Virus record (IMG/VR): IMGVR_UViG_2645727673_000004
DNA from: a virus
Lineage: Duplodnaviria > Heunggongvirae > Uroviricota > Caudoviricetes
Direction: 5' to 3' (one strand)
DNA: 5,217 nucleotides
The first letter of the stretch is position 1. Each line of letters starts with the position of its first letter. This document shows, piece by piece, positions 1 to 5,217 of the stretch. The translations under genes were made by a program, and so were the position numbers. The notes beneath the pieces are model-generated. The model was not told where the DNA came from. It worked only from the letters and a program-made list of their open reading frames with translations, and did no database searches.

Positions 1-642
1 CGCCGTCAGTCGCCCGTCCGGTGTAAGGGAAAATGCAGGAGGATTACCGCCGCTGGTAATGGTGGGAGCCGTCAGATATTTCAGGAACACGTCGTTCATG
101 AATATCTGATCACCCTGACCAACAAACATCGGCTTTGTGTTGCCATTCGCAGGATTAATCATCGCAATCCTGTCTGCCGCCAGCAGCACCTGACTCTGCA
201 TTCCTGCTGGCGTATTCTCAATACCGGCACCGATACCCGCAATATAAAGGCGTCCGTCCTGCATCTGCTGCAGTTTCACGGCCCACATGCTGTTCAGGTT
301 ATTATTTGTATCAACCTGAACCTTCTGTATCTGCTGGATCGCTGCACTCTGGTCTTCCAGTTTCTTATTGACGGTCTGTGTGATTTCATTGCTGACATCC
401 GTAATGGATGTCCTGATTTCAGCCAGGTCAGGCGCAAGCTGACCGTTATCAATCTGCGTCCACAGCTCCTGAGCCAGATGGGTTTTCCCTATCTCGCCTT
501 TGAAAAAATCCAGATAGCCGGATGCGTCATCACTCGGCTGACCAACAGCCTCCACGAATGCCGATTTGCCAACGGTGTTCACACTGCGAACGTAAAAATA
601 ATAATTATGGCCCGGTTTGATATTGATACTGGCGGCTAACAT
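1..642 (-). CDS. Lambda J-like tail-tip / host-specificity protein, distal fragment; 5'-truncated and running off the window at its 3' side
   Basis: Minus-strand frame is open from the window edge to ATG at 640-642 (214 codons). Translation is [34 protein letters not shown]...[98 protein letters not shown], which I recognise as the conserved distal part of lambdoid J-family proteins (Fn3-like YYFYVRSVN strand). An in-frame TAA sits two codons upstream (646-648) and there is no SD before the ATG, so the ATG is probably fortuitous. Absent from the ORF track because its stop is outside the window. Confidence 0.6.
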
Positions 643-660
643 CAATTAAGGAGGTTCAAC

Positions 661-783
661 ATGTTTCATTCCACAAATCATCAGGCTGTAATTATGGCTG
701 CATCAGCTTGTGCCACAGACCTTTTCCGCTTCACTTTGAGCCTGATTCATTTCTACCTGACCGGCTCGCCTCTATCTTTTTAA
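661..783 (+). CDS. Hypothetical small protein (40 aa) preceded by a consensus Shine-Dalgarno
   Basis: ATG at 661 lies 6 nt after AAGGAGG (648-654). ORF is MFHSTNHQAVIMAASACATDLFRFTLSLIHFYLTGSPLSF with stop TAA at 781-783. It is below the ORF-track length cutoff. No homolog recognised; coding status uncertain. Confidence 0.3.
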   Translation: MFHSTNHQAVIMAASACATDLFRFTLSLIHFYLTGSPLSF

Positions 784-963
784 TCCCCGCTTTATCCAAA
801 TTGCATTGCCAGAATGCCGACAACAGACTGACATTCAAATCCTGACTACCTCCAATAGGCTGAGCATCCACCTATATAGTTTTAATTTTCATCAATCCAT
901 TTAACTATCGTTTAATTGTTGTCACATAGGATTCTGCCGTTTTTAACAATGCAGGATAATAAG

Positions 964-1257
964 ATGAAAAAAATGTTGTTTTCTGCCGCTCTGGCAATGC
1001 TTATTACAGGATGTGCTCAACAGACGTTTACTGTTGGAAACAAACCGACAGCAGTAACACCAAAGGAAACCATCACCCATCATTTCTTCGTTTCGGGAAT
1101 TGGACAGGAGAAAACTGTTGATGCAGCCAAAATTTGTGGCGGCGCAGAAAATGTTGTTAAAACAGAAACCCAGCAAACATTCGTAAATGGATTTCTCGGT
1201 TTTATTACTTTAGGCATTTATACTCCACTGGAAGCGCGTGTGTATTGCTCACAATAA
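964..1257 (+). CDS. bor: Bor outer-membrane lipoprotein (lambda bor family, serum-resistance lysogenic-conversion protein)
   Basis: Translation MKKMLFSAALAMLITGCAQQTFTVGNKPTAVTPKETITHHFFVSGIGQEKTVDAAKICGGAENVVKTETQQTFVNGFLGFITLGIYTPLEARVYCSQ (97 aa) matches lambda Bor nearly residue for residue as I recall it. Lipobox is LITGC. It is convergent with Rz, as in lambda. The ORF-track start at 916 adds 16 non-homologous residues; ATG 964 chosen. Confidence 0.9.
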   Translation: MKKMLFSAALAMLITGCAQQTFTVGNKPTAVTPKETITHHFFVSGIGQEKTVDAAKICGGAENVVKTETQQTFVNGFLGFITLGIYTPLEARVYCSQ

Positions 1258-1267
1258 TTGCATGAGT

Positions 1268-1285
1268 TGCCCATCGATATGGGCA
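1268..1285. terminator. Hairpin between the convergent bor and Rz stops; possible weak terminator
   Basis: TGCCCAT-CGAT-ATGGGCA, a perfect 7-bp stem, lies between the bor stop (1257) and the Rz stop (1289-1291). There is no strong U-tract on either side, so function is uncertain. Confidence 0.3.
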
Positions 1286-1288
1286 GCT

Positions 1289-1750
1289 CTATCTGCACTG
1301 CTCATTAATATACTTCTGGGTTCCTTCCAGTTGTTTTTGCATTGTGATCAGCCTCTCTCTGAGGGTGAAATAATCCCGTTCAGCGGTGTCTGCCAGTCGG
1401 GGGCTGGTTGCATTATCCACGCCGGAGGCGGTGGTGGCTTCACGCACTGACTGACAGACTGCTTTGATGTGCAACCGACGACGACCAGCGGCAACATCAG
1501 CGCGCAGAGTTTCATTTTCAGCTTTCGCATTGGCTAATTCTCTCGAGTACTTTGCATCGAGTGCAGCAACATCACGCTGACGCTGCTGCATGTCAGCGAT
1601 AGTGGCGATCGCCTGCTTCAGCTCACTGACTTTTTTATCACGCTGTTCTTTGTAGGCGATGGCGTTATCACGGTAATGATTGACCGCCCACGACAGGCAG
1701 ACGATGATGCAGATAACCAAAGCATAAATAATCGCGGCGACTCTGCTCAC
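1289..1750 (-). CDS. Rz: Rz i-spanin (inner-membrane spanin subunit)
   Basis: Translation [39 protein letters not shown]...[62 protein letters not shown] is near-identical to lambda Rz. I place the start at GTG 1748-1750, which overlaps the R stop (GTGA) and has GGGGGA 7 nt upstream; this gives 153 aa as in lambda. The ORF-track start at 1765 is a TTG with no SD. Confidence 0.85.
1348..1530 (-). CDS. Rz1: Rz1 o-spanin (outer-membrane lipoprotein), fully embedded in Rz in the +1 frame
   Basis: 60-aa [63 protein letters not shown] has lipobox LVVVGC and a proline-rich stretch, and is near-identical to lambda Rz1. It lies entirely inside Rz. Confidence 0.85.
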
Positions 1751-2280
1751 TGCTCTATCCCCCAACAGGCTAATGCGCTTTCCTGGTCACGACGAATAAC
1801 CTGTCCATAGCAGTTATTTGAACGTATGCGGCAATCGCGCCCACCATCTTTTATCCACCAGCGAATCGCCTCGCATGCGCCCTTACGATCACCGGCATTC
1901 AGCCGCTTATAAAACGTCGACGGGAAACACTTACCGGGGCCAATGTTATAGGGACAGAATGACGCTATACCCGCTTTTTGTGGTTCGGTCAGTAGTACTT
2001 TAATATTGCGCTCCACCCATGCCAGCGCCTTATCACGCTCAATGGCGTTGACCTGGTCGCATTTTTCCTTCGACAGTTTCATACCGGGAAAAACGGGTTT
2101 TCCATCCACCATCGTGGCACCCCGACAGATGGTCCAGATGCCGGACCCATCGCGGTATGCCGTTGTGTGGTTACCTTCTTTTTCATCCAGAAACTGGTCG
2201 AGAATATCAGGCGCGGGCGCACCGACGGCAATCAGTGCCAGAACGGCAGCCGACAGGCCGTATCTGATTTTTGCGTTCAT
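1747..2280 (-). CDS. R: Endolysin, glycoside hydrolase family 24 (T4-lysozyme-like) with N-terminal SAR/signal-anchor segment
   Basis: 177-aa ORF with ATG start. N-terminal weakly hydrophobic Gly/Ala-rich segment [18 protein letters not shown] is followed by the catalytic E-x8-D-x5-T pattern ([16 protein letters not shown]). It matches the endolysins of Stx/lambdoid phages that I recall, and its stop overlaps the Rz start. Confidence 0.9.
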
Positions 2281-2343
2281 GGATATTTATCAGGATTTAT
2301 CGGTTTCTGCCCACGGACAGGTTTATCTGTTCCGGTCAGTGAC

Positions 2344-2694
2344 TTAAGGTTGTGATTCCGGAGGAGTCTTCAGAGAACCAGTAATTCTTCCCGGTAGCTT
2401 TCCTTTGTAGGTTATCCATACATTCTGCGCCTCTAAAATTACGGGGCGCTTTTCCGGCGACTGCTCATCCCCTTCACATAACCCGGCAGCAACATCCAGG
2501 AAGACCTGTCTGATACTCATTCTGGCTGCTGCCTCATAAAACTCCAGCGCGGCACCTTCAACACGGTCCAGCGAGATGTCCAGGTCAAAAATTTCACCGT
2601 CAAAGCGTTTTTTGTCCCGTAACGCTAAAGTTACCGTAACTTTATTCTCAAAATTGCGGATCCCTTTCACAATCAGTTCATAGTTTTGAGTCAT
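2344..2694 (-). CDS. DUF1327-family protein (YdfR-like) located between holin and endolysin
   Basis: 116-aa ORF MTQNYELIVKGIRNFENKVTVTLALRDKKRFDGEIFDLDISLDRVEGAALEFYEAAARMSIRQVFLDVAAG... resembles E. coli Qin-prophage YdfR, which lies between essQ and rrrQ (from memory). ATG at 2694 has GGGGAGAG upstream and sits 4 nt after the holin stop. Confidence 0.7.
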   Translation of the reverse strand: MTQNYELIVKGIRNFENKVTVTLALRDKKRFDGEIFDLDISLDRVEGAALEFYEAAARMSIRQVFLDVAAGLCEGDEQSPEKRPVILEAQNVWITYKGKLPGRITGSLKTPPESQP

Positions 2695-2698
2695 TGAA

Positions 2699-2914
2699 TT
2701 ACTCTCCCCGTGCCGCCTTACGACGGTCCTCTCTGATTTTGAAATACAGGTTAGTCAGATATGTCAGCAGCCCAAACAGCAGACTCCCCAGCACGCCTAT
2801 TGCCGCCCACTGAGACGGGGAAACCCTGTCCAGCAACTGCAGGAACCAGTAGCCCGTTCCCACCGCTGACGTGGTGTATGACACACCTGTTGTGATTTTT
2901 TCCATCTGGTCCAT
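2699..2914 (-). CDS. S: Class II holin / pinholin of the phage 21 S family, with dual-start motif (antiholin from Met1, holin from Met4)
   Basis: Translation [71 protein letters not shown] (71 aa) closely matches S21 as I recall it. Two in-frame ATGs at 2912-2914 and 2903-2905 give the classic dual start, with GGGAGA upstream. The ORF-track N-terminal extension to 3019 begins at GTG and contains a terminator, so it is rejected. Confidence 0.85.
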
Positions 2915-2946
2915 ACCCCGTCTCCCGTTATCCGGAAGCTGACAAC

Positions 2947-2978
2947 AATAAAAAAGCCACCAGTTAACTACTGATGGC
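2947..2978 (-). terminator. Rho-independent terminator on the late strand, immediately upstream of the holin
   Basis: Minus-strand RNA GCCAUCAG-UAGUUAA-CUGGUGGC forms an 8-bp stem with one G-U pair, followed by UUUUUUAUUG. Confidence 0.5.
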
Positions 2979-3221
2979 TCTGATAACTCATGCAAGCGTC
3001 TCAGACGATCCACTGACACTACCGGTGAGTTTAACGATACCTTCCATTTGACTGGCTCACTTTTTATGATGATGCCGGTGTATTTATCTCCAGCACCAGA
3101 CTTTCTATCTCAACGCCATACGTTGCATTTTTGGTAATATCCGTCAGCGTCAGTGCATTTAGTCCCACTGCCAGACCGTCTTTTATGGTCTGGAATGCCG
3201 GGCCAGTACGATGACGTAGTA

Positions 3222-3410
3222 TCACTCCGGCTCAGTTGCACCACTGACCACCACATCACCTTCTGCTGCAATCGCCTGCATCAGGGTATAAGGGGTTATG
3301 GCCACCGGACTACCAAACGGCTGCCAGCCCTCTTTCAGTTTATGTGTCAGCTTTTCCGCAAGATCTGACGGCGGCGCCGCCCTGACAACATCATAGTGTT
3401 TAAATGCCAT
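3222..3410 (-). CDS. Small DUF1737-like protein (62 aa)
   Basis: ORF MAFKHYDVVRAAPPSDLAEKLTHKLKEGWQPFGSPVAITPYTLMQAIAAEGDVVVSGATEPE carries the EGWQP-G motif that I associate with DUF1737 small proteins. ATG 3408-3410 is preceded by GGTGGAAAG; an alternative ATG at 3425 (MVERT...) has no SD. Confidence 0.55.
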   Translation of the reverse strand: MAFKHYDVVRAAPPSDLAEKLTHKLKEGWQPFGSPVAITPYTLMQAIAAEGDVVVSGATEPE

Positions 3411-3670
3411 GGTTCTTTCCACCATCTGAAAAATAATTCTTTAAAATACCAGACATGTAACACAGAAAAAACACAAAACCATACCTTAAATAGAAACCTG
3501 ATCATCAAGCAGATATGCATGGATAAACTACAAGACGAGATATAAACCACCCTGCATTTAAATAAACAATAAACAACATCAGAAAAATAATTCTGCTCTA
3601 TGGTTTATATTCAAAAATATCATTTATACTTTTCAGAACATCACCAGCAAGGCATAAACAAGGAAGCTAA

Positions 3671-4006
3671 ATGAAGTGGATTGTAATTGATACAGTTATC
3701 CAGCCATCATGCGGAATATCTTTTTCAGTCATATGGAGTAAAGTAAAATTAATAATCTGGTATCAATCGGATGCTTTCTTACCTCCTGAAAGTATATTTA
3801 CACTGACTCACACAGGTATCATGCTCAATAACAAAGTGCTACCTGTAACCATTTACAACGTAGTACCATTCAATAAAACATTCTGGAATTTAATCAAAAA
3901 CAGCCAGGAATGCCCTACAAATACAGATAACGTATTGAATGAATGCTTTAATAACCGTTGCATTCTGCAAATATGTCCTTATGGACTAAAACAACAAAGT
4001 CCATAA
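3671..4006 (+). CDS. Hypothetical protein, AT-rich orphan ORF (111 aa) opposite to the late operon
   Basis: ATG at 3671 is preceded by AAGGAAG (3660-3666). A 111-codon open frame in strongly AT-rich sequence is unlikely by chance because stop codons are AT-rich. Protein is [111 protein letters not shown]; no family recognised. Confidence 0.45.
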
Positions 4007-4027
4007 GGAGTTTACTCACATCTGACA

Positions 4028-4062
4028 AAATCAATATAAACAGCCCCTCCGGAGAGGGGCTG
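4028..4062 (-). terminator. Rho-independent terminator on the late strand (3' end of repeat unit R1)
   Basis: Perfect 9-bp GC-rich stem CAGCCCCUC-(4-nt loop)-GAGGGGCUG at 4041-4062, followed on the minus strand by UUUAUAUUGAUUUUGUC. There is no U-tract on the plus side. Confidence 0.6.
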
Positions 4063-4276
4063 GAGAGTGGCGCTATGTGCCATTGCATGGTGCCGGGTGC
4101 CTCCCGGTGAATTCAGTACCAGCACCTGAATCCGCGATTATCCCATATACCTACTCGCTGATTACCCCTCCGCACAGGGGGATTCACCATGCGAAATTTT
4201 TTAACAAACTTCCCGCCGGCCAGACAATAATCGCCAGCCTGAATTATGAGCAACGTGGCATTTTACGGGAAAACTG
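4041..4276. repeat. Repeat unit R1 of a diverged ~240-bp direct repeat (paralog of 4505-4746)
   Basis: Aligns with 4505-4746 along its whole length with several indels, roughly three-quarters identical by eye. Shared blocks include the 20-mer AGCCCCTCCGGAGAGGGGCT, GCATGGTGCC-GG-GCCTCCCGGT-AATTCAG, GGGGGATTCACCATGCG and TTTTTAACAAA...CCAGACAAT. Confidence 0.75.
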
Positions 4277-4283
4277 TTTTCTG

Positions 4284-4310
4284 CAGTAAAAAGGCCCGCC
4301 GGAGCGAGCC
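4284..4310 (-). terminator. Imperfect GC-hairpin terminator on the late strand, upstream boundary of R1
   Basis: GGCCCGC-CGGA-GCGAGCC at 4293-4310 has a 7-bp stem with one mismatch and the same CGGA loop as the repeat hairpins, followed on the minus strand by UUUUUAC. Confidence 0.4.
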
Positions 4311-4496
4311 TGGAAGGATAGCGGTCATGTGATGCCGGTTTCCCGGTAACTCAGCATCGGTATCTGAGTCAACGTTTTCTCTACTGGGTCATTTCCGATA
4401 CGTTCCGCCTTCCGGCAGACTTTCATCACGTCAGAAAATATAGCACCCTGAGTAACAGGACAGTACTCAGAATTCAGGAAACTGTGACACATCCTG

Positions 4497-4524
4497 CACA
4501 GAAAAGCCCCTCCGGAGAGGGGCT
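4497..4524 (-). terminator. Rho-independent terminator on the late strand (3' end of repeat unit R2)
   Basis: Perfect 8-bp stem AGCCCCUC-(4-nt loop)-GAGGGGCU at 4505-4524, followed on the minus strand by UUUUCUGUGC. Confidence 0.55.
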
Positions 4525-4746
4525 GAAGTATAGCCTAATTTCTGTCTGTCGCATGGTGCCAGGGGCCTCCCGGTAAATTCAGCCTGTCTACTGAATTTGC
4601 ATGTTCTCTGGATCATACACTTTGCCAGATGCCCCGCCGCTGAGGGGGATTCACCATGCGATGTAATTTTTAACAAATTCTCCGGCAGCCAGACAATCAT
4701 CAAGCTGTGGAATTGTGAGGTATTTAAAAATTTCAACGGGTAACTG
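4505..4746. repeat. Repeat unit R2 (paralog of 4041-4276)
   Basis: See R1. Same block order and orientation, and the same palindromic 20-mer at its left end. Confidence 0.75.
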
Positions 4747-4890
4747 ATACCCTGCTAATCGCCTGATGCTTTCTTTTTCAGCAACGGGAAAGCAACAACC
4801 ACACACCCGCCACCAAAACACCATCAGACAGCACCGACATTATCCGGCTGCTGAAGTCCACCATCACCACCAGAAACAACAGGAGTGCAA

Positions 4891-4939
4891 CCACAGCTGC
4901 TTAGAAGGCAATTGCTCTGCCCGGCTGAGCTAACAACGC
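4891..4939 (-). pseudogene. Degenerate tRNA-Arg(UCU)-like fragment (5' half only: acceptor arm, D-arm, anticodon arm)
   Basis: Minus strand reads GCGTTGT-TAGCTCAGCCGGGCAGAGC-A-ATTGC-CTTCTAA-GCAGC, with the D-arm and anticodon loop (U33, anticodon UCU) arranged like argU-type tRNA-Arg. No T-arm (no GTTCGAATC) or acceptor 3' strand follows, so it is a remnant. Confidence 0.3.
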
Positions 4940-5039
4940 TGAATACCGATAATGGACCGCCATCGGGGACCCGCCCCCGCACCAACAACCCTGTTATCGT
5001 GTCGTCTGCTCTTCCTGATAAGCTAATGGCGGTTTGTGA

Positions 5040-5115
5040 TGGTGGCCCTTGCTGGATTTGAACCAGCGACCTGGCGATTATGAGTCGCTCGCTCTCACCA
5101 CTGAGCTAAAGGGCC
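5040..5115 (-). tRNA. tRNA with CAU anticodon, most similar to tRNA-Ile2 (ileX/ileZ-like, lysidine type); may be annotated tRNA-Met
   Basis: Minus strand GGCCCTTTAGCTCAGTGGTGAGAGCGAGCGACTCATAATCGCCAGGTCGCTGGTTCAAATCCAGCAAGGGCCACCA is 76 nt and folds as a canonical cloverleaf: 7-bp acceptor stem, GCTC/GAGC D-stem, anticodon loop CUCAUAA, T-arm GCTGG-TTCAAAT-CCAGC, encoded CCA. It differs at only a handful of positions from E. coli ileX as I recall it. Confidence 0.9.
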
Positions 5116-5150
5116 GGGAGTAGAATAATAACGGTCCGTAATTAATTCCG

Positions 5151-5178
5151 CAATAAAAAACCCGCTCGGCGGCGGGTT
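5151..5178 (-). terminator. Rho-independent terminator on the late strand upstream of the tRNA (tR'-like)
   Basis: Minus-strand RNA AACCCGC-CGCCGA-GCGGGUU forms a 7-bp stem followed by UUUUAUUG. Its position upstream of the ileZ-like tRNA matches the tR' position in Stx-type phages. Confidence 0.55.
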
Positions 5179-5217
5179 GTAGAAACTCTTCTAACGCCAG
5201 GCATAAAAAGCCCATTA

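Follow-up and report, generated by a model that had tools for sequence, protein, structure and literature searches.

The tRNA cluster and its prophage setting

The window analyzed here is a 5217-base stretch of DNA. Near its high-coordinate end it carries an intrinsic terminator, an intact tRNA gene with a CAU anticodon (ileZ), the remnant of an arginine tRNA gene (argN), and the 5′ stump of a second one (argO), all of them encoded on the minus strand, so that they run from high to low coordinates (Table 1). Near-identical records and Pfam matches give a minus-strand order of Q, terminator, tRNA, DUF3927 ORF, three STnc100 elements, IraM (antisense), DUF1737, holin, YdfR/DUF1327, lysozyme, Rz/Rz1, and Bor/Iss (antisense). 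By this gene order, the window is the late region of a lambdoid prophage. The cluster thus occupies the position of the Stx-phage tRNA module, between Q and the lysis genes of the late operon; in identical or nearly identical records, Q ends ∼144 bp upstream of ileZ, ∼40 nt past the end of the window. Both the ileZ-argN-argO cassette in this position and its link to stx are textbook knowledge for Stx phages. Positions 637-5217 match phage vB_EcoS-640R1 at 99.98% identity and many Escherichia coli chromosomes, for example that of strain M217, at 100%. The full window, end to end, was absent from the complete RefSeq E. coli genomes, in which the best match reached 92% coverage at 97.7% identity.

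Table 1. Features of the tRNA region and neighboring elements in the window
Feature	Coordinates	Strand	Basis or remark
tR′-like intrinsic terminator	5159-5178	minus	Terminator scan: AACCCGCCGCCGAGCGGGTT then TTTTATTGCG; 7-bp GC-rich stem, 6-nt loop
T run of the tR′-like terminator	5158-5153	minus
Promoter-like TTGCGG-17-TATTAT	5123-5151	minus	By eye
ileZ, intact tRNA, anticodon CAU, tRNA-Ile2 type, encoded CCA end	5040-5115	minus	ARAGORN and Rfam
argN pseudogene, 80 nt	4953-5032	minus	Alignment to phiP27 and Stx2a argN
argO 5′ stump, 42 nt	4898-4939	minus	41/42 match to argO (tRNA-Arg UCU)
Deletion junction AAGCA/GCTGTGG	4897-4898	minus	Sequence comparison with DS566, script-confirmed
5′-shortened DUF3927 ORF, 38 aa, GTG start	4778-4894	minus	Pfam DUF3927, E = 5.8e-11; RefSeq WP_000226111.1
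Three tandem STnc100 (RF02076) elements	4689-4032	minus	Rfam
STnc100 copy 1	4689-4496	minus	138 bits
STnc100 copy 2	4460-4285	minus	30 bits, below gathering
STnc100 copy 3	4220-4032	minus	132.5 bits
gpJ internal fragment (tail-tip gene), 215-aa open frame leaving the window	1-638	minus	Joined directly downstream of bor/iss

No stx ORF was found in the window, as the original prediction had stated, and none in the 12.5 kb that are annotated in the phage record of 99.98% identity. The flanking DNA was also examined, as had been proposed: a Q gene and a pR′-like site lie upstream. The slot downstream of the tRNAs in which stxA and stxB would be sought holds the DUF3927 stub and the STnc100 copies, and the region is therefore not that of an Stx-converting phage. 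A GC-rich hairpin closes each STnc100 copy (copy 1 by terminator scan, the others by Rfam alignments). In Stx2a_WGPS2, an STnc100 homologue lies directly 3′ of stxB (locus 4670-4908). STnc100, an established family of prophage sRNAs, is related to PasD (bioRxiv 10.64898/2026.05.13.724894).

At the low-coordinate end of the window, the gpJ fragment is fused downstream of bor, and the annotated layout of isolate AF44 is the same. This fusion implies that the terminase, the head genes, and most of the tail genes have been deleted, and thus that the prophage is defective. Two further genes run antisense to the late operon, an IraM-like anti-adaptor gene (3671-4006, plus strand) and a Bor/Iss lipoprotein gene (964-1257, plus strand). 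IraM-like and Bor/Iss genes are typical lysogenic-conversion morons.

The intrinsic terminator lies 43 nt upstream of ileZ, and the outer end of its stem, 5178, coincides with the upper bound that the original prediction gave for the tRNA region. In strain M217, the same terminator site is found ∼80 nt downstream of the Q stop codon. From this position, the hairpin is presumably the Q-antiterminated tR′. Inspection of the M217 locus by eye revealed a TTGATT-16-TAAATT element with a TG extension immediately past the stop codon of Q, with a −10-like CATAAT behind it; the element spans M217 locus 1208-1235, which is 9-36 nt past window position 5217. It is pR′-like, and the hairpin at 5178-5159 would end a transcript of ∼65-70 nt, a layout that we take to be comparable to that of lambda 6S RNA or StxS of Stx phages. 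A second promoter-like sequence, TTGCGG-17-TATTAT, ends 10 nt upstream of ileZ and is conserved in phiP27 and in the Stx2a phage; the block of homology with these phages begins exactly there. A promoter scan returned no promoter on the minus strand between 4400 and 5217 and none between Q and ileZ in the M217 locus, the pR′-like and ileZ-proximal sites both falling below its threshold. The placement of the cluster just downstream of Q and tR′, which had been put forward as the rule for Stx and related phages, is borne out for the window by the near-identical records; it does not carry over to the Stx2 phages, in which a DNA methyltransferase gene precedes the cluster.

Identity of the CAU tRNA

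ARAGORN called exactly one tRNA in the window, at the position of ileZ and with anticodon CAT. The Rfam tRNA model scored this gene at 72.5 bits (gathering 29, E = 5e-15), in agreement with the earlier description of the CAU-anticodon tRNA as intact. The RNA would form a canonical cloverleaf with a CAU anticodon and discriminator A73, as is characteristic of tRNA-Ile2. Its single noncanonical pair in the Rfam alignment, A27-C43 at the top of the anticodon stem, is common to every Stx-phage ileZ examined and is thus no mark of decay. All 76 positions are identical to ileZ of Stx2a_WGPS2, so that the first member of the module is present in the window.

A CAU anticodon could also belong to an elongator tRNA-Met, which would not read AUA. 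ARAGORN names the gene tRNA-Met, a call made from the anticodon alone, and several GenBank phage records annotate it in the same way. Relative to the genes of E. coli K-12, however, ileZ matches ileX at 68 of 76 positions and metT at only 54 of 77. In its acceptor stem, GGCCCTT/AAGGGCC, the pairs C4-G69 and C5-G68 agree with ileX, whereas that of metT reads GGCTACG/CGTAGCC (T4-A69, A5-T68). As Ikeuchi et al. reportedly found in 2005, C4-G69 and C5-G68 let TilS tell tRNA-Ile2 from tRNA-Met, and ileZ has both of these pairs. The anticodon loop, CUCAUAA, and the discriminator base are likewise shared with ileX, and the 6-67 pair has changed in a compensatory manner, from C-G to U-A. The two genes differ in that ileX is a chromosomal core gene and has G27-U43 where the phage copy has A27-C43. 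Finally, RefSeq/PGAP annotates the identical sequence as tRNA-Ile. We therefore regard tRNA-Met as an improbable identity for this gene, and annotations of the CAU tRNA of the window as Met are probably wrong.

Taken as a tRNA-Ile2 gene, ileZ is probably functional, and its product would depend on lysidine and read AUA codons. We infer its transcription, its lysidine modification, and a benefit to phage or host from the arrangement of the locus. Q would let RNA polymerase that starts at pR′ read through tR′, and with ileZ so close behind the terminator, its transcription as part of the late transcript would be expected whenever Q allows read-through. The weak, conserved promoter-like site just upstream may also drive ileZ. 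Host tRNA-processing enzymes would then cut the tRNA from the transcript, and host TilS would convert C34 to lysidine, such that AUA could be read. Because the prophage is defective, late transcription may never be induced.

The ileZ tRNA may help the translation of AUA-rich phage genes. In the genes of the window, AUA accounts for 13 of 58 Ile codons, or 15.5 per 1000 codons overall, and AGA for 11.9 per 1000. These figures are several-fold above the E. coli averages of roughly 4-5 per 1000 for AUA and 2 per 1000 for AGA. AGA is thus still frequent despite the loss of argO, and codon demand alone fails to explain which tRNAs survive.

Deletion within argO

The argO stump keeps the 5′ strand of the acceptor stem, the complete D arm, the 5′ strand of the anticodon stem, and the anticodon loop with UCU. 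Three of the five bases of the 3′ strand of the anticodon stem are left; the break falls at GCA/AT, and the remaining 35 nt of the gene are deleted. The sole substitution relative to argO is an A-to-G change in the D loop. Rfam sees the stump only as a 3′-truncated tRNA (17 bits, E = 0.32, below gathering), the 3′ half of argO was not found anywhere in the window, and an intact argO (anticodon UCU) is accordingly missing as the third member of the module. The original prediction had described a tRNA-Arg(UCU)-like fragment at 4891-4939 that retains an acceptor, D, and anticodon arm and lacks a T-arm. The fragment is real and its makeup is as described, save that the anticodon arm is incomplete on its 3′ side; its boundary required correction, because it ends at 4898 and positions 4891-4897 already belong to the DUF3927 ORF region.

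The DS566 prophage represents the undeleted state of this locus, with the order ileZ-argN-argO-TerB family-DUF3927. Relative to DS566, 654 bp are absent from the window, corresponding to DS566 locus positions 847-1500. The missing DNA comprises the 3′ half of argO, a terminator-like hairpin that was identified by eye, the TerB-family gene, and the opening codons of DUF3927. At the junction, the argO stump runs into codon eight of DUF3927, and there is neither microhomology nor a repeat. Both DS566 and phage mEp460 carry a full argO with near-identical flanks, and on this comparison, argO is judged to have been halved by one defined 654-bp deletion rather than by gradual decay.

The DNA between argO and STnc100 varies among phages. 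This slot holds stxAB in phiP27 and WGPS2, TerB and DUF3927 in DS566, and 531 bp of other DNA in mEp460. That different phages carry different cargo after argO supports the reading of the slot as a cargo hotspot subject to recombination. Decay or recombination at such a hotspot had been suggested at the outset; the hotspot is upheld by the varying cargo, whereas the loss of argO is accounted for by the defined deletion. By its position, the TerB-family gene of DS566, together with DUF3927, is a two-gene cargo in the slot that stxAB uses in toxin phages. Within DS566 locus 1052-1644, DUF3927 is a small hydrophobic ORF that overlaps the end of the TerB-family gene. It encodes 54 aa in DS566 versus 38 aa in the window, where the ORF has lost its first codons and its TerB partner and has no obvious ribosome-binding site.

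tRNA genes are common targets of integration, with the anticodon arm as the classic region of crossover, and a stump that breaks off in this arm could be the attachment-site scar of an element that integrated site-specifically into argO. Integration, however, normally keeps or duplicates the 3′ part of the tRNA, and here it is the 5′ part that survives. No integrase is adjacent in the window or in near-identical annotated records, and the DS566 flanks are contiguous across the 654 bp, which are ordinary prophage DNA, with a junction devoid of repeats. Given that the window has no argO 3′ half, that no integrase lies nearby, and that the undeleted state is preserved in DS566, we rejected an attachment-site scar as a very unlikely origin of the stump. 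A deletion within argO remains the preferred explanation.

The argN remnant and its relatives

The ∼100 bp between ileZ and the argO fragment had been read as a spacer. This is incorrect, because the argN pseudogene occupies most of the interval. The cluster has thus lost two members: the argO remnant had been recognized as one of them, and argN, present as a pseudogene, is the other. The argN remnant still has the D arm, the T stem, and both strands of the acceptor stem. Its anticodon arm has been swapped for unrelated sequence that forms a 7-bp hairpin with a 3-nt loop, and its T loop reads GCGGGT, without TTC, versus TTCGAGC in intact argN. ARAGORN made no call for the remnant in the window, and a 171-nt search with the Rfam tRNA model gave no match even at E <= 10. 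The predicted fold lacks an anticodon loop, and its z-score is −1.0; 35 of 200 shuffles fold equally well. The intact argN (tRNA-Arg, anticodon UCG) expected as the second member of the module is therefore not present; by all of these features, argN is dead, a pseudogene.

The replaced anticodon arm is common to the argN remnants of phiP27, mEp460, and the window. A scan of IMG/VR with an 18-nt exact word inside this arm returned at least 120 loci; the matches listed, together with the window and other relatives, make up 125 remnant-bearing loci. From the matches listed, we assembled a set of 105 IMG/VR loci that have ileZ, the remnant, and a full argO. Because the loci were picked by a word inside the remnant and include many near-identical prophages, the resulting diversity figures are descriptive and constitute no formal selection test: among these 105 loci from the matches listed, ileZ occurs as 7 alleles (pi = 0.005 per site) and argO as 10 (pi = 0.012), both at fixed length, whereas the DNA separating the two genes falls into 21 alleles and 10 length classes. 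Among the matches listed, the T loop TTCGAGT is kept in phiP27-type remnant alleles and lost in window-type alleles, and slippage has produced runs of G4 to G16 in the T arm of the remnant. The acceptor-stem changes CCGTC, CCGGC, GACGG, GGCGA, and AGCGG are never compensated among these matches, and some of the remnant alleles listed have U8 changed to G. As far as allele comparison can tell, this pattern of variation is the signature of a pseudogene beside constrained genes.

Deletions add to this picture. Across the 125 loci assembled from the matches listed, the window, and the other relatives, argO is full in ∼110, cut at the junction of the window in 5, and absent in 4. A second, independent deletion was found in three IMG/VR loci among the matches listed (L025, L035, and L054). 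It involves a shared word, GGTTGTTG, that occurs in the replaced argN arm and inside DUF3927, and it takes out the remainder of the argN remnant, the whole of argO, and the greater part of DUF3927.

These data also bear on the possibility that the argN remnant is a functional tRNA-like RNA, for example a decoy or a processing signal. RNAfold does return an acceptor stem, a D arm, the 7-bp replacement hairpin, and a T stem, and the replaced arm is conserved in >120 loci, although these were picked by an exact match inside the arm. The fold is nonetheless no better than that of shuffled sequence, the Rfam tRNA model fails to recognize it, and its alleles accumulate uncompensated acceptor mismatches, the U8-to-G change, a G run of varying length, and outright deletions. 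On the fold statistics and the allele pattern, we rejected a functional tRNA-like remnant, which has very little probability left, in favor of a pseudogene.

Positions 5155-4898 of the window are colinear with the tRNA clusters upstream of stx in phiP27 (91.9% identity) and Stx2a_WGPS2 (87.1% identity), in an alignment of 258 bp with E = 6e-102. With only ileZ intact, the locus is thus an Stx-phage-type cluster that has lost members, as originally proposed. That the likeness of 4891-4939 to tRNA-Arg arose by chance or from a generic tRNA-like motif can be dismissed, because the stump departs from argO at a single position, none of 200 dinucleotide-preserving shuffles gave a match, and the fragment sits inside this colinear alignment; the similarity to argO over random sequence that the original prediction demanded is thereby established.

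Among the relatives, Stx2a_WGPS2 (NC_049941; 933W/Sakai Sp5 type) shares with the window the module, its order, and ileZ; also conserved are the ∼40 nt that precede ileZ, the spacers between the tRNAs, and the 5′ half of argO. It differs in having three intact tRNAs, all of them annotated in its record, stxAB after argO, and the DNA methyltransferase gene before ileZ, where the window has an argN pseudogene, an argO stump, no stx, and tR′ directly before ileZ. The closest Stx-phage match is phiP27 (an Stx2e phage, NC_003356), which has the replaced arm at the argN position. Both ARAGORN and the annotation of the phiP27 record give only ileZ and argO, leaving the argN remnant unannotated. Unlike the window, phiP27 has the TTCGAGT T loop in its remnant, a full argO, stx2e, and a C13-to-A change in ileZ. 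Phage mEp460_ev081 (LR597641) is 99% identical to window positions 5215-4898, including tR′, ileZ, and the dead argN allele, but has a complete argO, followed by the other DNA in the slot and a DUF3927-like ORF with a different N-terminus. The cS76a prophage has an argO-DUF3927 junction identical to that of the window. In DS566 and cS76a, unlike in the window, argN is intact and a methyltransferase gene lies upstream.

Of 5426 complete E. coli genomes, 321 contain the argO-DUF3927 junction, and in 240 of these it accompanies the dead argN. In strain cS76a, the identical junction stands beside an intact argN. The same junction in two argN backgrounds indicates that it has moved between them by recombination. 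The window combines an mEp460-like left side with a cS76a-like right side. Among the matches listed and the relatives, 85 of the 125 remnant-bearing loci have the mEp460 layout, and none combines the argN remnant with the TerB/DUF3927 layout. With no remnant-bearing TerB parent found, the window is best read as a recombinant of two backgrounds and not as the direct product of a deletion in any one of the genomes sampled.

Together, these data make it very likely that the window carries a Stx-type ileZ-argN-argO cassette in an stx-free, defective E. coli prophage, with ileZ working, argN dead, and argO cut by a deletion. An old event would have swapped the anticodon arm of argN, and later mutations would have wrecked its T loop. 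The single 654-bp deletion would have halved argO and taken with it the TerB-family gene and the start of DUF3927, and recombination among prophages would then have spread the resulting junction.

More tentatively, selection may maintain ileZ as a moron made up of its own promoter and tRNA gene, which would serve the host as an extra AUA decoder even in a defective prophage, with the arginine tRNAs dispensable and repeatedly lost; we hold this to be possible, though on balance doubtful. In DS566, a hairpin and T run were identified by eye just after argO. With the conserved TTGCGG-17-TATTAT site at its other end, this hairpin suggests that the tRNA cassette is a self-contained unit of promoter, genes, and terminator. 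Selection for such a moron is consistent with the near-invariant ileZ across the 105 loci among the matches listed and with the graded decay of argN. It is also consistent with at least two independent deletions that remove argO and with the promoter-like site that travels with the cassette. The ileZ-only state occurs in 240-321 of 5426 complete E. coli genomes.

The tRNA module as such is not new, and in hundreds of genomes the ileZ copy and the DUF3927 stub are already annotated features in RefSeq. A literature search on the ileZ/argN/argO tRNA genes of Stx phages found nothing relevant, and the argN remnant with its graded decay, as well as the precise limits of the 654-bp deletion, may so far be undescribed. 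The argN remnant and the argO deletion are routine prophage erosion and represent no new type of element, and their significance beyond annotation is small. They document a partly decayed Stx-phage tRNA cassette in a defective lambdoid prophage that lacks stx and is common in E. coli, and they show that the slot after argO, the site of stxAB in toxin phages, is a hotspot of recombination and deletion with alternative cargo. The unannotated argN and argO remnants are usable as markers of mosaic ancestry in Stx-phage late regions.
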